Below are positions 1-6,254 of a stretch of DNA of 10,708 nt, one piece after another (positions within the stretch are counted from its first letter, which is position 1; every line of letters starts with the position of its first letter). The position numbers were made by a program, and so were the translations under genes. Source of the DNA: a virus (taxonomy: Duplodnaviria > Heunggongvirae > Uroviricota > Caudoviricetes). A model generated the notes under the pieces. It ran no database searches, was not told the DNA's origin, and worked only from the letters and a program-made list of their open reading frames with translations. The stretch lies in IMG/VR virus record IMGVR_UViG_2585427768_000002, positions 1 to 10,708 of that record. The stretch is one strand, 5' to 3'.

Positions 1-82
1 CTGGCAACATTAACAGGCGTTCCATTGCTGGAATTGCACGTTCCGCCACCTCACGCAGTGCCTGGTAATTAATTTCGCTCAC
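1..82 (-). CDS. hypothetical prophage protein, N-terminal fragment (gene continues beyond window start); paralog of the next gene
   Basis: Reverse complement of 1..82 reads GTG AGC GAA ATT AAT TAC CAG... = MSEINYQALREVAERAIPAMERLLMLP. SD AAGGAGG lies 6 nt upstream of the GTG at 82..80. The GTG overlaps the TGA stop of the upstream gene (GTGA). N-terminus resembles that of the 79..759 gene (MSKIDYQELREAAEQ). Confidence 0.5.
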   Translation of the reverse strand, partial: MSEINYQALREVAERAIPAMERLLMLP

Positions 83-759
83 TGATTGCCTCCTTTGCGA
101 AGCTGGGCAGCAAAGTCAACTAACCACTCAGTCATTTCAACCTTCCCTACCAGGTCTGAACCAGGGTGCATACAGCAATCACTCTGCGCCGCTTTGAAAT
201 CCTTACACTCATATTCTTGGGCCACCAGATTTTTTGCAGCTTCTATAGCAGCATCCACCCCCTGCGCCCGGACTTCAGCCAGGAAAGCATCAGTGGTTGG
301 CGTTTCAGGTATCTGTCTCCTCATCCGTTCTATTGCATGATTGAACCCGAAGTCTTCCGCGAGAGATACGTCATCCATATTGTCATTGTCATCCTCAATA
401 TCCCGTGATTTTGGAATTGCAGACTTTATTCCCGCATTCTCAGCAGCCAGCGCCGCGCACTTGGCCTCAAGAGCGGCAACCACTTCCTGATGGTCTTTGT
501 ACTTAACGTATGAGCCGGAGATGTCATCACCTTCGGTGTTTAGCCATGCGTCATTGCAATTCACTGCGTAGGTTCTGATGCTGATGCTCTCCCGCCCCTG
601 ACAGACGCCAGGCCAGTCAATAAAGTATCCGCAATGCCTACCCTCAGACGTGCGCGCAGGATAAATGCCGTTATGACCCGGCAAAATATATGCTACCCAT
701 TCATCTTGCGTTGCCTGTTCCGCCGCCTCGCGCAGTTCTTGATAGTCAATCTTGCTCAC
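79..759 (-). CDS. hypothetical prophage protein (about 226 aa), coiled-coil-like central region
   Basis: ORF track lists 79..792, but the ATG at 792 has no SD and overlaps the upstream gene. GTG at 759..757 is preceded by AAGGAGG (6 nt spacing) and overlaps the upstream TGA stop as GTGA, so I set the start there. C-terminus ends ...LRKGGNQ. Confidence 0.6.
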   Translation of the reverse strand: MSKIDYQELREAAEQATQDEWVAYILPGHNGIYPARTSEGRHCGYFIDWPGVCQGRESISIRTYAVNCNDAWLNTEGDDISGSYVKYKDHQEVVAALEAKCAALAAENAGIKSAIPKSRDIEDDNDNMDDVSLAEDFGFNHAIERMRRQIPETPTTDAFLAEVRAQGVDAAIEAAKNLVAQEYECKDFKAAQSDCCMHPGSDLVGKVEMTEWLVDFAAQLRKGGNQ

Positions 760-1106
760 TGGTTGCCTCCTTTGCGAATCTGTTCCGCCCATTCTTCTAG
801 GGATTTCTCCGCATATTCACCGGACAGGCCATCAATCGGGTGTGGTTCATTAGCCAACTCTTCTTTCGCTGACAGAATCATGCGTGTAACGTCGAAAACT
901 TCACGTAAAGACTTATTGATAAATCCGTGATTGAAAGCCGCAGCAAGACGGCTTGCGGTATAGTTAATACCCTCGTTGCGAGCCTCAGCACGTACTTCAT
1001 CGAATTTACGCACCAGATACTCAGCATTTGTTTCATTCACTTTCAGATCTCGTGGTACACATTTCCCGCGAAGAAACCCTTCCATTTCGAAAACATTCAT
1101 GCGCAT
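756..1106 (-). CDS. hypothetical prophage protein (116 aa)
   Basis: Complete ORF. SD GGAG (plus-strand CTCC at 1115-1118) sits 8 nt upstream of ATG 1106..1104. C-terminus ...IRKGGNQ matches the C-terminus of the downstream paralog. Its stop overlaps the next gene's GTG start. Confidence 0.6.
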   Translation of the reverse strand: MRMNVFEMEGFLRGKCVPRDLKVNETNAEYLVRKFDEVRAEARNEGINYTASRLAAAFNHGFINKSLREVFDVTRMILSAKEELANEPHPIDGLSGEYAEKSLEEWAEQIRKGGNQ

Positions 1107-1143
1107 TTGCGTAACTCCGATAACTCGTTAAAACGTTCCATAA

Positions 1144-1341
1144 ACATCCCGTAACCGGATCCGCGATCTGGACAACTATAACAAGGCGCTGTTTGACGCC
1201 CTGACCCACGCGGGTGTGTGGGAAGACGACAGTCAGGTGAAAAGAATGCTGGTGGAGTGGGGACCGGTTATCCCGGAGGGGAAGGTCGAGATCACTATCA
1301 GTAAGTACGAAAAAGCGAGTTGCAAATTAGCAACTCGGTAA
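1144..1341 (+). pseudogene. rusA: rusA (Holliday junction resolvase) 3' remnant, N-terminally truncated
   Basis: Frame from 1144 to TAA at 1339-1341 translates TSRNRIRDLDNYNKALFDALTHAGVWEDDSQVKRMLVEWGPVIPEGKVEITISKYEK... This matches the recalled RusA C-terminal catalytic region (RDLDN...DALT.AG.W.DD.QV). No start codon or N-terminal half is present; a stop lies at 1141-1143 and the minus-strand gene 756..1106 occupies the upstream space. Confidence 0.55.
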
Positions 1342-1386
1342 CGGAATTGAGCAACACCCTAAATTTGGGTATTACCTCGTTAAAGA

Positions 1387-1406
1387 TACTGTATTTATGA
1401 ACAGTG
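1387..1406. promoter_or_regulatory. LexA-box-like palindrome (candidate SOS operator) upstream of the KilA-N gene
   Basis: Sequence taCTGTatttatgaACAGtg at 1387-1406 has the CTGT-N8-ACAG architecture with an AT-rich spacer, like the E. coli SOS box consensus TACTGTATATATATACAGTA. A possible -35 TTGATA (1412-1417) and -10 TAAGTT (1435-1440) lie just downstream. Confidence 0.45.
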
Positions 1407-1503
1407 TATCCTTGATAACTATTAAAAATCGCAGTAAGTTCATCCTGCATCAACGAAAAGGGAGTGCAGTCCCGCTCGTGGATAAAAATTTGTGGAGAAA
1501 CCA

Positions 1504-2319
1504 ATGAATCAGTTGCTTGTAATTGATGGCGTTTCTGTGCGCCAGTACTTCGAATCTAACTACTGTCTTAACGACCTTCAGAAAGCTGCTCTTCTTGCCG
1601 CTGGTGAGAATCGCTCCTCCCGTTCGCTGGAAGTTCACGAGTTTATGCGTCGTCCTGAAACGAAGGCTCTTGTGGAATTATTGGAAGAAGAAACTACGGG
1701 AGATTCCCGTAGTATTCCTGTCATCACCATTCAGGGGCGCAATGGTGGGACGTATGTCTGTAAAGAGCTGGTCTATGCATATGCAATGTGGATCAGCCCG
1801 GCATTCAGCTTAAAAGTGATACGTACTTTTGATGCGCTTCATAATTCATCACCAGAAGAAACCACATCCGACAAAATTAAATCCGGGGTCATTCTGCTTG
1901 AATCAGCAGCAAAGACTCTAAATCTGTCAAACTCCTCGAAACTTGGTGCATACCAGAAATTATCAAAGGTAGCTGGTCTTCCTGAACTTATGCCGATCTA
2001 TGCCATTGATGCACCTGCTGATGCGCCAGATGGTTCAAGCCGCCCTACGCTGTCGCTGAGTGCACTGCTGAAGCAGTATGGTATCCGCCTGACGGCTAAT
2101 CAGGCATATCACCAGATGGCGAAGCTGGGGATCGTTGAACAACGCGAACGATACAGCCGTACCGCGATTAACAACATCAAAAAATTCTGGTCGCTGACCG
2201 CGAAAGGCTGCATGTTCGGCAAGAACATCACCAGTCCTGCAAATCCGCGCGAGACGCAGCCGCATTTCTTCGAATCCCGATTTCCTGAGCTGTTAAAGCT
2301 GCTCGATACCGTTCATTGA
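1504..2319 (+). CDS. KilA-N domain protein (phage antirepressor/Roi-like DNA-binding protein)
   Basis: ORF track 1492..2319 begins at a GTG. ATG at 1504 has SD GGAG 7 nt upstream, so I set the start there. N-terminal region GRNGGTYVCKELVYAYAMWISPAFSLKVIRTFD matches the KilA-N core motif (G-T-[WY]-V-x-x-x-L-x-x-x-[YF]-A-x-W-[IL]-S-P-x-F) as recalled. Confidence 0.7.
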   Translation: MNQLLVIDGVSVRQYFESNYCLNDLQKAALLAAGENRSSRSLEVHEFMRRPETKALVELLEEETTGDSRSIPVITIQGRNGGTYVCKELVYAYAMWISPAFSLKVIRTFDALHNSSPEETTSDKIKSGVILLESAAKTLNLSNSSKLGAYQKLSKVAGLPELMPIYAIDAPADAPDGSSRPTLSLSALLKQYGIRLTANQAYHQMAKLGIVEQRERYSRTAINNIKKFWSLTAKGCMFGKNITSPANPRETQPHFFESRFPELLKLLDTVH

Positions 2320-2326
2320 GGTGACT

Positions 2327-3316
2327 GTGAGAGCACTACTGACCCCTGAAATTGCCCCGCGTATGGGGATCGTATTGTTCAGGCCAGGTTCAGAGCTGAT
2401 GCCCCTGTTTATGCAGGGGCGTGTCCTGCTGGAGCCTGAGCCGGAGCGTTATTCATCTTTCGCCAGTGGTGCCGTTCCGGCGGCATCACAACCGCTGGCG
2501 GATGATCCTGCCGTTCGGGCCGTGTTCCGCCATGAGGCAGTGATCCGTCGTGCTGGTGGCGTGGAATGTCTTGAAAGCTGGTTACTTCGTGAAAAAGGCT
2601 GCCAGTGGCCTCATTCCGGATGGCACAGCGAGAACATGACCACAATGCGACACGCTCCGGGTGCAATCCGTCTGTGCTGGCACTGCGATAACCAGCTGCG
2701 CGATCAGTTCACGGAACGGCTGGAATCAATGGCAACGGATAACTGTGCCCGCTGGGTGTTGTCTGTTGTGCGTCGGGATCTCGGTTTTGATGACAGTCAC
2801 GTTGTGACAATGCCGGAACTGTGCTGGTGGCTGATTCGTAATGACCTGGCGGATGCCTTACCGGAAAGTGCAGCCCGTAAGGCACTGAGATTACCGAAGC
2901 CTGTTGTGCCGTCTGTCACCCGGGAAAGTGACCTTGTGCCTTCGGTTCCTGCCACCAGCATCATCCAGGATAAAGCGAAAAAGGTGCTGGCGCTGAAAGT
3001 GGATCCGGAGTCGCCGGAGTCTTTTATGTTACGCCCCAAACGTCGCCGCTGGGTTAATGAAAAGTACACGCGCTGGGTTAAGACGCAGCCGTGTGCATGT
3101 TGTGGAAAGCCTGCTGATGATCCCCACCATCTGATAGGCCACGGTCAGGGGGGAATGGGTACAAAAGCGCATGATCTCTTTGTGTTGCCTTTGTGCAGAA
3201 AGCATCACGACGAGCTGCATGCGGATACCGTGGCATTTGAAGAGAAGTATGGCTCCCAGCTGGAGTTGATATTTCGTTTTATCGATCGTGCGCTGGCAAT
3301 TGGTGTGCTGGCCTGA
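2327..3316 (+). CDS. DUF968-like prophage protein with C-terminal HNH-like His/Cys motif (YdfU-like)
   Basis: ORF track 2321..3316. GTG at 2327 is 5 nt after SD GAGG (2318-2321), so it is the likelier start; 2321 remains possible. C-terminus CACCGKPADDPHHLIGHGQGGMGTKAHDLFVLPLCRKHHDELH is HNH-like. A second Cys/His cluster (CQWPH...CWHCDN) lies mid-protein. Family assignment is from memory of E. coli prophage DUF968 proteins. Confidence 0.65.
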   Translation: MRALLTPEIAPRMGIVLFRPGSELMPLFMQGRVLLEPEPERYSSFASGAVPAASQPLADDPAVRAVFRHEAVIRRAGGVECLESWLLREKGCQWPHSGWHSENMTTMRHAPGAIRLCWHCDNQLRDQFTERLESMATDNCARWVLSVVRRDLGFDDSHVVTMPELCWWLIRNDLADALPESAARKALRLPKPVVPSVTRESDLVPSVPATSIIQDKAKKVLALKVDPESPESFMLRPKRRRWVNEKYTRWVKTQPCACCGKPADDPHHLIGHGQGGMGTKAHDLFVLPLCRKHHDELHADTVAFEEKYGSQLELIFRFIDRALAIGVLA

Positions 3317-3333
3317 TTTTGTGGAGAAAGTTG

Positions 3334-3690
3334 ATGCGTGATATGTATGAAGTAATGGATCGTTGGGGAGCTTGGGCTGCTTCAGACAATAGCGGAGTGG
3401 ACTGGCAGCCGATAGCGGCTGGTTTCAAGGGACTTTTACCTCATGGCAAAAAGTCACGGATTCAGTGTGATGATGACGAAGGCATCATGATAGACAGTTG
3501 TGTGGCTCGGTTGAGAAGGTATAAACCAGAGGAATATGAGCTCATCATCGCCCACTTTGTTATCGGTATCTCATTACGTACTATTGCGAAGAAGAGAAAA
3601 TGCTCTGATGGCACAATTAGGAAGGAACTGCAAACTGCAATGGGGTTTGTTGACGGCTGTTTAGCAATGTTAGCTTATAGTATGGCATAA
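3334..3690 (+). CDS. late-gene antiterminator Q, short QuuD/phage-82-like type
   Basis: ATG at 3334 has SD GGAG 7 nt upstream (track start 3319 is a TTG). Protein MRDMYEVMDRWGAWAASDNSGVDWQPIAAGFKGL... resembles the short (about 120-130 aa) Q antiterminators of DLP12-type prophages as recalled. Position after the nin-region genes and before the tRNA/late region fits. Confidence 0.75.
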   Translation: MRDMYEVMDRWGAWAASDNSGVDWQPIAAGFKGLLPHGKKSRIQCDDDEGIMIDSCVARLRRYKPEEYELIIAHFVIGISLRTIAKKRKCSDGTIRKELQTAMGFVDGCLAMLAYSMA

Positions 3691-4884
3691 AAAATAAAAT
3701 AGATTTACTGCCGATTTTTCAAAAAAGACTGGGAACTGTTTATATCCAACGTAAATAAGGCCTCCATAAAACATGGCTGATGCGAGATATTTAACAGTTC
3801 TCATCCTTTTTTTAGCTTTATCAATCAAACCTGTAATGCTACTCTTAATACTATCTGCATTATCTTTGATTTCTTTATTTTCTTCAAACTTTAAATACTT
3901 ATCGAAAGCGGACTCCACTCGAGAACGTAAGTTGTCGAATGTTTCATTGAATATCTCAATAGAAATGTAATTGACTTTTTTTATCATCCAAAGTCCTGCG
4001 ATAATCAATATTGCTTCGGTTGTTTCATTAGCCTTCACTAAGCCACCAGCAGCTATTAATGCACCGGGAATAGTCAATGCTTTTGTCTGATTAGATGATA
4101 TGAATTCGTTAATTTTACTCGTGAACTCAAGATTTTTCTCATCGAGTTCGTTAAGAATTTTATTTACAGAAAACCTCTTTGTGTAAATCTCATATAGTTC
4201 ATCATATTTTTTCCTGACGAGTTCAGTAGAGTTAAGCAAGTCAAAGAAATTGAACGTACCATTTGCTTTAAATACTTCGTTTATGGCTGAGCGTATAACG
4301 AGCTTGCGCTCGCTTTTGTGTAAATCATTGATTTTTATTGTGTCGAGAAGCTCCTTTATAATTTCATATTTAAGAGACGAGTTCGATAAGCGATTAATCT
4401 CGCTATATTGTAAAAAATGCGTGAGTTCGACTGTATAACTTTTGTCTTCATTGGTGAAAAATAAGACAGAGCAGTCACTGTTATGATGATCAGCAATTAA
4501 TGAAAGGATATCTTTCCACATAAAGAAAATATGGATTTTTTCGATGCTTTCATTCTTAGAAGTAGGGAGTATTAACGGCGTTCCGATGATATAATTTTTC
4601 GGAAGAGCGTTTTGGGTGTTTACTCTAGACCAAAAAGACTCAACATTCTCATAAATTATAGCGTCATCCCAAGATGAAGCTTGGCGATCTAGCCAAATTT
4701 CATTATTTTCGATGCAGGTTGTTGCCTTTTTATAACCTATAGATTGTAACAGTCTAATTATTTCAGAACTATTTACAATAACAATGCTTTCTTCAAGACT
4801 TATGACAGTGTAGTAGCCCTCAACTCTGCTTGAGGCTCCGTTAATAATCTGCGCTAATCTTGATAAGTCATCAGCAATTGTCAT
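3670..4884 (-). CDS. hypothetical membrane-associated protein (404 aa): soluble N-terminal domain plus C-terminal hydrophobic helices; candidate effector of a two-gene module
   Basis: Complete ORF. ATG at 4884..4882 lies 2 nt after the stop of the upstream gene (TAA-TA-ATG), indicating translational coupling. Hydrophobic segments at about aa 268-303 (ALTIPGALIAAGGLV...AILIIAGLWMI) and about aa 365-400 (YLASAMFYGGLIYVGY...). Very AT-rich, with AGA and ATA codons. No family recognised. Confidence 0.75.
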   Translation of the reverse strand: MTIADDLSRLAQIINGASSRVEGYYTVISLEESIVIVNSSEIIRLLQSIGYKKATTCIENNEIWLDRQASSWDDAIIYENVESFWSRVNTQNALPKNYIIGTPLILPTSKNESIEKIHIFFMWKDILSLIADHHNSDCSVLFFTNEDKSYTVELTHFLQYSEINRLSNSSLKYEIIKELLDTIKINDLHKSERKLVIRSAINEVFKANGTFNFFDLLNSTELVRKKYDELYEIYTKRFSVNKILNELDEKNLEFTSKINEFISSNQTKALTIPGALIAAGGLVKANETTEAILIIAGLWMIKKVNYISIEIFNETFDNLRSRVESAFDKYLKFEENKEIKDNADSIKSSITGLIDKAKKRMRTVKYLASAMFYGGLIYVGYKQFPVFFEKSAVNLFYFLCHTIS

Positions 4885-4886
4885 TA

Positions 4887-6062
4887 TTAGCTGTCTCTAT
4901 ATCTTTTGAGTTCATCATAATTTGCCTGACTCAATTTTATCACAATTTCGCATTTGTTGTCAGTGAGAATTACAGGCTTATTTGACTTTTCGTCTCCAAT
5001 AGCTCCACGCATTATTTTCAACTTAAAATTATTGTCGTTATCTGCCACTTCAATTGTAAGCGCGCTTTCAGCTGCTTTAGGAGTTGGTTCAAATTGAGGG
5101 TCAATCTGGAAACCATTAAGATTAACAAAATCGACAAACGTTCCCTTACATTTGTGTGAATCAGTCAGGCATGAGTCAATTATTTTTGAAATATCCTCTA
5201 TCTTAACGGACTTATTTCCGTGTTTATCTTTTGATTTTTTTTCCAGTAAGGATTTAACTTCATTGTCAATAGTATCACGCAGTACACGACCGAGTGAGTT
5301 TTTACTAGCAAAAATATCTATAGCACTGAATAATTGCTGAATGCTTCTTTTATTGTCCGAATCATGTCGGCAACCTAATGAGTCTTTGAAAAAATCGCTT
5401 TTAGATTTACCTTGCAAGAAATGTACATATGAGTCACCCTTGTTTTCTGGATAACTGGCTTCGAATAAAGTTAAATCGAACATCGCAGCCTGCCGTAAGG
5501 CATCGGTATTAATTGGATTTAATCTTGTTGGGGTCAACTTATCCGAATCAAAGTCATAGGCGCTTTGTTTATCAACCATTACGATTAGAAGTTTCCCCAA
5601 ATCCTCTGGTTCGGTAGACTTATAGTGGATGAAAACAACGCTCCCCCCCTGAAGTTGGGCAACTCTCGATTCGTTATTAGCATTATGTTTAAGCTTCTCT
5701 ATTATAGCTCTAGATAAATCAATGAATTCATTATTTTTATTAATGTATTTTTTTAGGATCGTAGGAATGGATGAAGGGTTGTGATCTGAGTCTAGGAAGT
5801 TATGAAATTTGTTTTTTCGGCTAAATTTTTTCTCAATTCTGGTTATGAATTCAGATGTGACTTCATTTTTTAGATCCCAAACTTCACCTAATCGATAATC
5901 AAATGCTCTTGAATCATTTTTTTCAAGATTTGCTGTTACAGCACCAATAGGAAAGTACGATTGTTTGCCCAGCACTACAACATGAGGCGTGGCACCGCAT
6001 TTATCGCAAGCTACAGTTGGGTCGTCAAGAACATTGCCACATTCTAAACAAGTTATATCCAT
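4887..6062 (-). CDS. zinc-ribbon protein with NdpA/YejK-like (NA37 family) nucleoid-associated domain (391 aa)
   Basis: Complete ORF. ATG at 6062..6060 with SD GGGA about 7 nt upstream. N-terminal C5-x2-C8-x10-C19-x2-C22 zinc ribbon. Residues 139-147 GGSVVFIHY, 212-220 YVHFLQGKS and SDFFKDSLG align with recalled YejK motifs ([31 protein letters not shown]). AT-rich. Confidence 0.8.
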   Translation of the reverse strand: MDITCLECGNVLDDPTVACDKCGATPHVVVLGKQSYFPIGAVTANLEKNDSRAFDYRLGEVWDLKNEVTSEFITRIEKKFSRKNKFHNFLDSDHNPSSIPTILKKYINKNNEFIDLSRAIIEKLKHNANNESRVAQLQGGSVVFIHYKSTEPEDLGKLLIVMVDKQSAYDFDSDKLTPTRLNPINTDALRQAAMFDLTLFEASYPENKGDSYVHFLQGKSKSDFFKDSLGCRHDSDNKRSIQQLFSAIDIFASKNSLGRVLRDTIDNEVKSLLEKKSKDKHGNKSVKIEDISKIIDSCLTDSHKCKGTFVDFVNLNGFQIDPQFEPTPKAAESALTIEVADNDNNFKLKIMRGAIGDEKSNKPVILTDNKCEIVIKLSQANYDELKRYRDS

Positions 6063-6087
6063 TATATATCCCGAATTATAAGAATGA

Positions 6088-6115
6088 ATTTTTATGTGGC
6101 TGAAAATTCTATCAA
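6088..6115 (-). promoter_or_regulatory. candidate sigma70 promoter for the minus-strand two-gene operon
   Basis: On the minus strand: TTGATA (plus coords 6115..6110), 16-nt spacer, AAAAAT (6093..6088). A TATAAT hexamer (6080..6075) lies directly before the SD. Hexamers identified by eye only. Confidence 0.25.
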
Positions 6116-6182
6116 AACACTAACGCGTACGCAAAAAGTATTGTATTGTGTTAAGAGTGGTTACTTCGCCACACAACTTAAC

Positions 6183-6204
6183 CCCGCCACTGAGCGGGTT
6201 TTTT
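6183..6204 (+). terminator. intrinsic terminator-like hairpin (plus strand)
   Basis: Stem CCCGC (6183-6187) / GCGGG (6194-6198), 6-nt loop, followed by TTTTTT (6199-6204). No plus-strand gene lies immediately upstream. Confidence 0.5.
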
Positions 6205-6254
6205 GTACCTGTAAACTTGGTGCAGTACAGTAAACACGCTGGTGGTCGTGAATA

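Follow-up and report, generated by a model that had tools for sequence, protein, structure and literature searches.

DS-1 anti-phage cassette overlapping the antiterminator gene Q ahead of a putative late promoter block in an O104:H4-type lambdoid prophage

Here we report the anatomy of the locus at which the antiterminator gene Q of a lambdoid prophage meets a defence cassette on the opposite strand. The window, i.e. the whole stretch of DNA that was analysed, comprises 10,708 bp (IMG/VR record IMGVR_UViG_2585427768_000002, positions 1 to 10,708). The main features are given below, with the basis of each assignment in brackets.

3334–3690, plus strand: antiterminator Q of the Q21/933W family, 118 aa (PF06530, PGAP, allele alignment)
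3670–3690, both strands: 21-bp convergent overlap of Q and the second DS-1 gene (ORFs, PGAP calls)
3673–3690, plus strand: Q tail AYSMA and stop codon, made of cassette DNA; the opposite strand encodes the DS-1 end LCHTIS (allele alignment)
3670–4884, minus strand: second DS-1 gene, 404 aa, identical to WP_000150292.1 (NF053869, RefSeq)
4887–6062, minus strand: first DS-1 gene, 391 aa, YejK/NA37-like nucleoid-associated protein, identical to WP_000355468.1 (PF04245, NF053868)
3673–6119, minus strand: DS-1 cassette, about 2.45 kb, about 34% GC (composition, alignment-based boundaries)
6088–6115, minus strand: candidate DS-1 promoter with -35 TTGATA (6115–6110), a 16-nt spacer and AAAAAT (6093–6088) (consensus scan)
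6120–6204, plus strand: conserved late-promoter block of about 85 bp (homology to 933W 20666–20748; right border of every cargo type)
6120–6125, plus strand: -35-like CTAACG (alignment)
6144–6149, plus strand: -10-like TATTGT (alignment)
6150–6161, plus strand: invariant GTTAAGAGTGGT (alignment across cargo types)
6183–6198 and 6199–6204, plus strand: terminator hairpin with five GC pairs, followed by T6 (terminator scan)

The plus-strand open reading frame spans 3319/3334 to 3690, and the probable start codon of Q is the ATG at 3334, which is preceded by GGAG and yields a protein of 118 aa. The product matched Pfam PF06530 with an E value of 3.2e-47 and 159.8 bits (cutoff 26) over profile positions 1–115 of 118, and gave a weak phmmer match to the Q21 structures 6P18 and 6JNX (E 1.3e-3, residues 8–86) that indicates a distant relationship. 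Alignment with other alleles placed the end of the conserved core at codon 113 (Leu113, TTA, 3670–3672), with a common C-terminus ...GF[IV][DE]GC[LI]x[MI]L that ends at residue 113. Among 116 representatives of Q clusters (83–92% identity, several genera) there were 59 different tails, with a length of 0–8 aa except for one of 21 aa, and the commonest form of Q stops exactly at residue 113. Tails of at most two residues made up 56%, as against about 20% expected for a random walk to the next stop codon in a rough test on non-independent sequences. An AlphaFold model of Q is all-helical with a moderate mean pLDDT of 68.9, but its last helix (residues 92–117) is confident, so that the tail merely extends this helix. 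Judged by its divergence, Q is evidently under purifying selection, since nucleotide divergence far exceeds protein divergence (e.g. 76% nucleotide versus 89% protein identity for the Q of locus L058).

The two minus-strand genes form the cargo. The product of the first gene matched Pfam PF04245 (E 1e-23), and the two proteins matched the NCBIfam equivalogs DS1_1 and DS1_2 (NF053868, 451 bits, cutoff 330; NF053869, 375 bits, cutoff 315). In the supplement of the DefensePredictor study, WP_000355468.1 and WP_000150292.1 are listed as DS-1, a replicated defence system with the working ID D390, and a plasmid clone of DS-1 that includes its native promoter region is described as protective (PMC13092281). 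Because both the equivalog models and the RefSeq accessions point to DS-1, the cargo is a known and validated two-gene defence system; its activity at this particular locus is predicted from the identity of the proteins. Both proteins are identical by RefSeq accession to those of the published system and are encoded in the same order, and the main text of that study, as searched here, contains no discussion of DS-1 adjoining Q or of an overlap (PMC13092281). Neither DS-1 protein was matched by PADLOC (2023), whereas NCBIfam matched both. The G + C content between 3650 and 6150 is about 34%, compared with about 50% in the flanks.

Q (3334–3690) and the 404-aa gene (4884–3670) share the 21 bp from 3670 to 3690. 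The stop codon of Q is the TAA at 3688–3690, and that of the minus-strand gene is the reverse complement of the TTA at 3670–3672. Such a convergent overlap had been proposed in an initial annotation of this DNA, and both the reading frames and RefSeq, which calls the same pair of genes, bear it out: in an E. coli chromosome that is 100% identical (L003), the NCBI PGAP annotation gives Q at 5035–5391 and an anti-phage protein at 5371–6585, likewise with a 21-bp overlap. The junction was found at an identity of at least 99% in 106 records from 105 of 5,426 complete E. coli genomes, among them O104:H4 strains. As also claimed, the two stop codons leave no space for a terminator, which is unusual compared with the eleven other cargo types in which a hairpin is present. 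The terminator scan and folding detected no terminator-like hairpin within or beside the overlap on either strand, the minus-strand RNA past the DS-1 stop did not fold better than shuffled sequences (z +1.18), and neither the junction nor the promoter block matched any RNA family in Rfam.

The left edge of the cassette lies at the terminus of Q, as the initial annotation had it, and can be placed to the codon. Q alleles that are followed by other cargo align through codon 113 and are unrelated beyond it, which puts the junction 18 bp inside the annotated Q reading frame. The stop codon of the second DS-1 gene is the reverse complement of the Leu113 codon of Q. Where codon 113 is CTT (L031 and Raoultella L086), the DS-1 protein continues for three codons into the Q core and ends in ...KHC, which results in 407 aa and an overlap of 30 bp. 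Since the tail of Q is encoded by cassette DNA and the stop of DS-1 by the Q core, each gene borrows its end from the DNA of the other. The left breakpoint thus falls at Q codon 113/114, and alignment with insert-free phages, namely Stx2_EH2201 (L001, whose Q has 57% identity) and 933W (whose Q belongs to a different subfamily), gave the putative pR'/qut block at 6120–6204. An empty site was not found in relatives with the same Q clade. The locus of P0183, a Q whose tail is long and looks native, was considered as an empty site and discarded, as a plus-strand Bro-N gene lies between this Q and the block.

The right edge is formed by the conserved block at 6120–6204. Its counterpart in 933W (20666–20748) is annotated as a 'putative' pR', qut and terminator and overlaps the last bases of Q; the two sequences have in common the invariant AAGAGTGGT core, the hairpin and the T-run. 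Homology and position support an assignment of the block as a pR'/qut/tR' module, the 933W features themselves being labelled putative. In the insert-free Stx2_EH2201, homology to 6127–6562 of the window begins 16 bp past the stop codon of Q. The right border is sharp in all cargo types, with unrelated sequence ending at (C)TAACGCGTACGCAAAA and the conserved block after it. The spacer of the putative pR' is 18 nt long; its weak -35 and -10 hexamers were placed by alignment, and a consensus scan for sigma-70 promoters did not call pR'. An invariant ACGCGTACGCAAAA occupies the position expected for a Q binding element between -35 and -10 and is a candidate by position. The repeat TGAGCA, the Q binding element of phage 21, is absent from the block, as would be anticipated given how distant the two Q proteins are. 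In L004, some 225 bp separate the block from the holin gene that follows it, and in L086 and L089 the block is flanked by DS-1 on one side and the holin gene on the other. The claim that the qut site and late promoter do not directly follow Q thus stands, the block that matches the pR'/qut/terminator of 933W being located about 2.43 kb past the Q stop codon.

The slot between Q and the block holds other cargo elsewhere. In a sample of 80 IMG/VR contigs whose Q is at least 87% identical, the interval from Q to the block always measures 1.4–3.8 kb; it falls into 12 size classes and has a G + C content of 0.30–0.40. At least 12 different low-GC modules are present, and nearly all of their genes are on the minus strand. 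Minus-strand cargo in this slot was also found in the genomes of phages mEp460 and PhiR40_1. The contents of the slot in individual loci are as follows:

L071: DS-8-like/PDC-S60 protein of 1,050 aa
L043: PDC-S42
L055: PDC-M53A
L037: GmrSD_N protein and C5 methylase
L040: a further NA37 protein together with a RelA_SpoT-domain protein
L074, L058, L053, L005 and L073: no Pfam, NCBIfam or PADLOC match for the largest protein, the sole one searched
L004: match to TIGR04255 only, a family that is uncharacterised

The modules of L074, L058, L053, L005 and L073 are, by their position, candidates for new defence systems. The module of L040 (7387–9464), which occurs also in L035 and L056, combines an NA37 (YejK-like) protein with RelA_SpoT in the same slot and suggests that NA37 proteins are a reusable part with interchangeable partners. 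In L037 (7001–7369; the GmrSD_N/C5 methylase type), the cargo joins Q at an earlier point, after ...GCL, and Q is a 122-aa form with the unrelated tail SFFIYYNDLSSM. In L093 (3001–4803), the tail of a Q with 83% identity is long and looks native (GVTLEMD...), and it is followed by a different promoter-like sequence; a plus-strand Bro-N gene stands ahead of the conserved block, so that plus-strand cargo occurs in the slot as well.

The DS-1 cassette is 99–100% identical across phage backgrounds that are otherwise unalignable. In L030, identity rises from 88–91% to 99–100% within Q at about position 3534, and no alignment is possible ahead of Q or past about 6200; the corresponding rise in L033 is at about 3634. 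The breakpoints in unrelated backgrounds are located inside Q and just past the putative tR'. No meaningful target-site duplications or terminal inverted repeats were found at the edges of the cassette, and transposition was rejected on these grounds. The simplest reading is that cassettes would be swapped by homologous recombination in the conserved flanks, i.e. in Q and the promoter block. We regard it as highly probable that the overlap marks the left border of an exchangeable defence cassette, which occupies a recombination hotspot between Q and pR' of an O104:H4-type lambdoid prophage.

Diverged lineages of DS-1 were gathered from a protein database and by look-ups of contigs; a search of the second DS-1 protein against species-representative genomes gave no match. 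A convergent overlap with Q is present in Raoultella (30 bp), a Logan assembly contig (33 bp) and Klebsiella sp. (21 bp), whose DS-1 homologues have 71–90% protein identity and adjoin differing early regions. In Pectobacterium, a homologue of 41% identity does not adjoin Q. The overlap of 21–33 bp in the Raoultella, Klebsiella and Logan lineages indicates that it is ancestral to the Q-linked lineage of DS-1. An ancestral overlap unrelated to cargo would have spoken against the reading of the initial annotation; the overlap is ancestral among DS-1 carriers yet tied to the DS-1 cargo, and that reading is therefore not refuted. Across these lineages, Q ends in AYSMA, AQCMA, AEGMTYVIQ or PLYLT, and the second DS-1 protein in CHTIS, CHTLSKHC, CHTFS or SEIKW. 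Because both tails vary freely, a function of the overlap at the level of its sequence is disfavoured. The seam itself is an ordinary, tolerated junction of a known defence system, and the overlap in all likelihood arose because the junction is so tight and has been tolerated, rather than being a selected device.

The TTGATA of the candidate DS-1 promoter does not vary among five diverged lineages of DS-1. Only four bases separate it from the -35-like hexamer of the putative pR', which would place the two promoters back to back. Here and in other cargo types, -35-like hexamers on the minus strand (TTGATA, TTGTAT, TTTATA and similar) lie at an almost constant distance of 4–8 nt from the -35-like hexamer of pR', and the gap is an A-rich tract, which points to a shared divergent-promoter layout. 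At the other end of the cargo, ten other cargo types have a GC hairpin with A- and T-runs in the gap of 12–39 bp after Q, and L053 has such a hairpin in a gap of 206 bp; the hairpin is absent from DS-1 and from the overlapping L073 type. These hairpins, which were located in L058, L055, L074, L005, L004, L034, L043, L040, L035 and L053, look like bidirectional terminators that may travel with each cassette. Between 3670 and 1713, no terminator-like site was detected on the minus strand. The RNA antisense to Q is rich in C and poor in G (C/G of 1.0–3.5, exceeding 1.3 in 10 of 11 windows of this RNA), so that Rho is likely to be what stops its synthesis. From the activity of DS-1 with its native promoter region, the conserved TTGATA and the stretch free of terminators between 3670 and 1713, we infer convergent transcription into Q, and read-through of the DS-1 transcript into Q is plausible on these features of the sequence. 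In the lysogen, DS-1 would be transcribed leftward from its own promoter, and the transcript, having no intrinsic terminator, would extend antisense into Q until stopped by Rho. Upon induction, rightward early transcription would cross DS-1 in antisense orientation up to the tR' hairpin (6183–6204). The 118-aa Q encoded at 3334–3690 would still be functional and would reach pR' via the cytoplasm, over a distance of about 2.4 kb on the DNA.

Other readings were weighed as well. The overlap could be an artefact of sequencing or annotation, with one of the reading frames truly ending sooner; the NCBIfam model of the second DS-1 protein spans only residues 46–378 of 404, so that the last 26 residues lie outside the conserved core. 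The C-terminus is upheld, however, by the identity of the sequence (at least 99%) in 105 complete genomes, by independent gene calls that concur, and by full-length homologues of 404–407 aa that retain the C-terminal ...FYFLCHTIS(KHC); neither reading frame has an earlier in-frame stop codon, and a premature end of the kind that the initial annotation had allowed for is scarcely credible. Alternatively, the insertion may have crippled Q or parted it from its promoter and left a prophage defective in late expression, in which case the arrangement would represent decay. The core of Q is about 13 C-terminal residues shorter than in an insert-free relative (113 aa versus 126 aa in L001), the six C-terminal residues of Q21 contact RNA polymerase, and the window has no stx, which is present in related Stx phages. 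Yet the 113-aa core is the commonest form in more than 100 cluster representatives from several genera (83–92% identity), Q has diverged far more in nucleotide than in protein sequence, the pR' block is intact and conserved, phages mEp460 and PhiR40_1 have the same layout, and the last helix of Q is modelled confidently to residue 117 in a model of moderate overall quality. We consider decay very unlikely.

Somewhat more weight is due to the possibility that the overlap, lacking a terminator, has been selected as a regulatory device: antisense transcription in the lysogen would damp leaky expression of Q, and after induction, strong transcription running rightward through Q would collide with that of DS-1 and silence it, thereby sparing the phage's own development. 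DS-1 lineages with as little as 71% protein identity retain the overlap without a terminator, and the persistence of the overlap through four diverged lineages could signal selection rather than neutrality. Moreover, ten other cargo types have the apparent bidirectional terminator 12–39 bp after Q (L053 in its 206-bp gap), DS-1 works from its own promoter without induction, and the region from 3670 to 1713 has no minus-strand terminator-like site. There is also an analogy with lambda, in which the CII-activated promoter paQ lies inside Q and yields, in the lysogenic pathway, an RNA antisense to Q that controls it, although paQ is a dedicated promoter, whereas the antisense RNA predicted here would be read-through from a cargo operon. 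Against such a device speak the free variation of the overlap in sequence and length (21, 30 and 33 bp) and of both protein tails, the C-rich antisense RNA, a probable target of Rho that may terminate prematurely, and the overlap of the unrelated cargo type L073 with Q, which fits tight junctions that arise by chance; on balance, we view a regulatory device as a rather unlikely, tentative option. A still broader proposal holds that the seam between Q and pR' in Q21-family lambdoid prophages of this clade is a dedicated defence hotspot, that convergence is functional (cargo on in the lysogen, off upon induction), that the terminator-less cargo transcript is an anti-Q RNA that stabilises lysogeny, and that the modules of L074, L058, L053, L005 and L073 are new defence systems; taken together, this seems to us improbable. 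A tolerated by-product at the seam of a swappable cassette remains the preferred reading.

Like other lambdoid phages, the prophage combines a Q of the Q21/933W family with a homologous promoter/qut/terminator block in the order Q-pR'-qut-tR'. The promoter of lambda, phage 21 and 933W comes straight after Q or overlaps its end, whereas here 2.45 kb of opposite-strand cargo intervenes. Phage 21 differs furthermore in the length of its Q21 (162 aa, versus a core of 113 aa here) and in its TGAGCA repeat, from which the candidate Q binding element of the window departs. In DLP12 and PA-2, the interval that separates Q from the lysis genes contains the porin genes nmpC and lc, as it contains stx in Stx phages, and DS-1 is likewise accessory cargo in the interval from Q to lysis. 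The stx genes, however, are located downstream of pR'/tR' in late orientation, whereas DS-1 lies between Q and pR' on the opposite strand. DS-1 also resembles the morons of lambdoid phages, a concept that reportedly goes back to Juhala and Hendrix, in being an autonomous unit of deviant composition (G + C content of 0.34 versus about 0.5 in the flanks) with a candidate promoter of its own, inserted between elements that are adjacent in relatives (L001, 933W). Classic morons end in their own terminator, whereas DS-1 has none and overlaps its neighbour. Known defence hotspots likewise have conserved flanks and many alternative cargoes, including defence genes, with fast turnover (PMC9122126; PMC13586616). 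They belong to another phage group, whereas the slot described here lies between a regulator gene and the promoter that it controls; furthermore, its cargo is nearly always convergent on Q, and its border cuts the end of Q and rewrites the tail. No description of a defence hotspot between Q and pR' was found in the searchable literature, although an earlier one may exist.

This study adds the precise anatomy of the seam, a relocated putative late promoter and a rich cargo slot between Q and pR' to what is known of DS-1, which had already been described. It gives a base-level account of how a validated defence system rides a prophage of the outbreak lineage E. coli O104:H4, and the near-identical cassette in unrelated backgrounds, with breakpoints in conserved flanks, suggests a mode of spread. 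On the left the point where the Q core stops, and on the right CTAACGCGTACGCAAAA...GTTAAGAGTGGT, provide a handle for cargo searches, and with about half of the sampled cargo types lacking a match in the defence libraries, this handle could harvest candidate defence genes. The Q genotype and the interval from Q to stx are used for predicting the toxin output of Shiga-toxin phages; that the late promoter may lie kilobases past Q, behind opposite-strand cargo, matters for the interpretation of such Q/stx genotypes.

The region downstream of the block resembles that of Stx phages, with the same tRNA trio, a nanS-like esterase and DUF1378. Downstream of the putative pR'/tR' and in late orientation, the plus strand encodes a TrmB-like winged-helix protein of 65 aa (6329–6526) and an AraC-family regulator of 237 aa (6661–7374) with YdeO and GadX as its best matches and its own promoter-like site at 6598–6625; the TrmB-like/AraC pair is present also in phage phiSTEC1575-Stx2k, upstream of stx2k. 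Three tRNA genes follow on the plus strand (7403–7652), with the anticodon CAT and with Arg-TCG and Arg-TCT. The CAT tRNA is called Met by ARAGORN and Ile (ileZ) in the RefSeq and 933W annotations, and the set matches the ileZ-argN-argO trio of Stx phages, yet stx is absent downstream. The slot that stx occupies in Stx phages, which is bounded here by the tRNA genes and by the nanS-like esterase, contains a strong match to the STnc100 sRNA family (RF02076, 140 bits; 7728–7918, plus strand). A protein of 653 aa with DUF1737, SASA esterase and DUF6645 domains is encoded at 8141–10102 (plus strand) and resembles L0105 of 933W, a YjhS-like protein that comes after stx2 in that phage, whereas toxin genes are absent upstream of it here.
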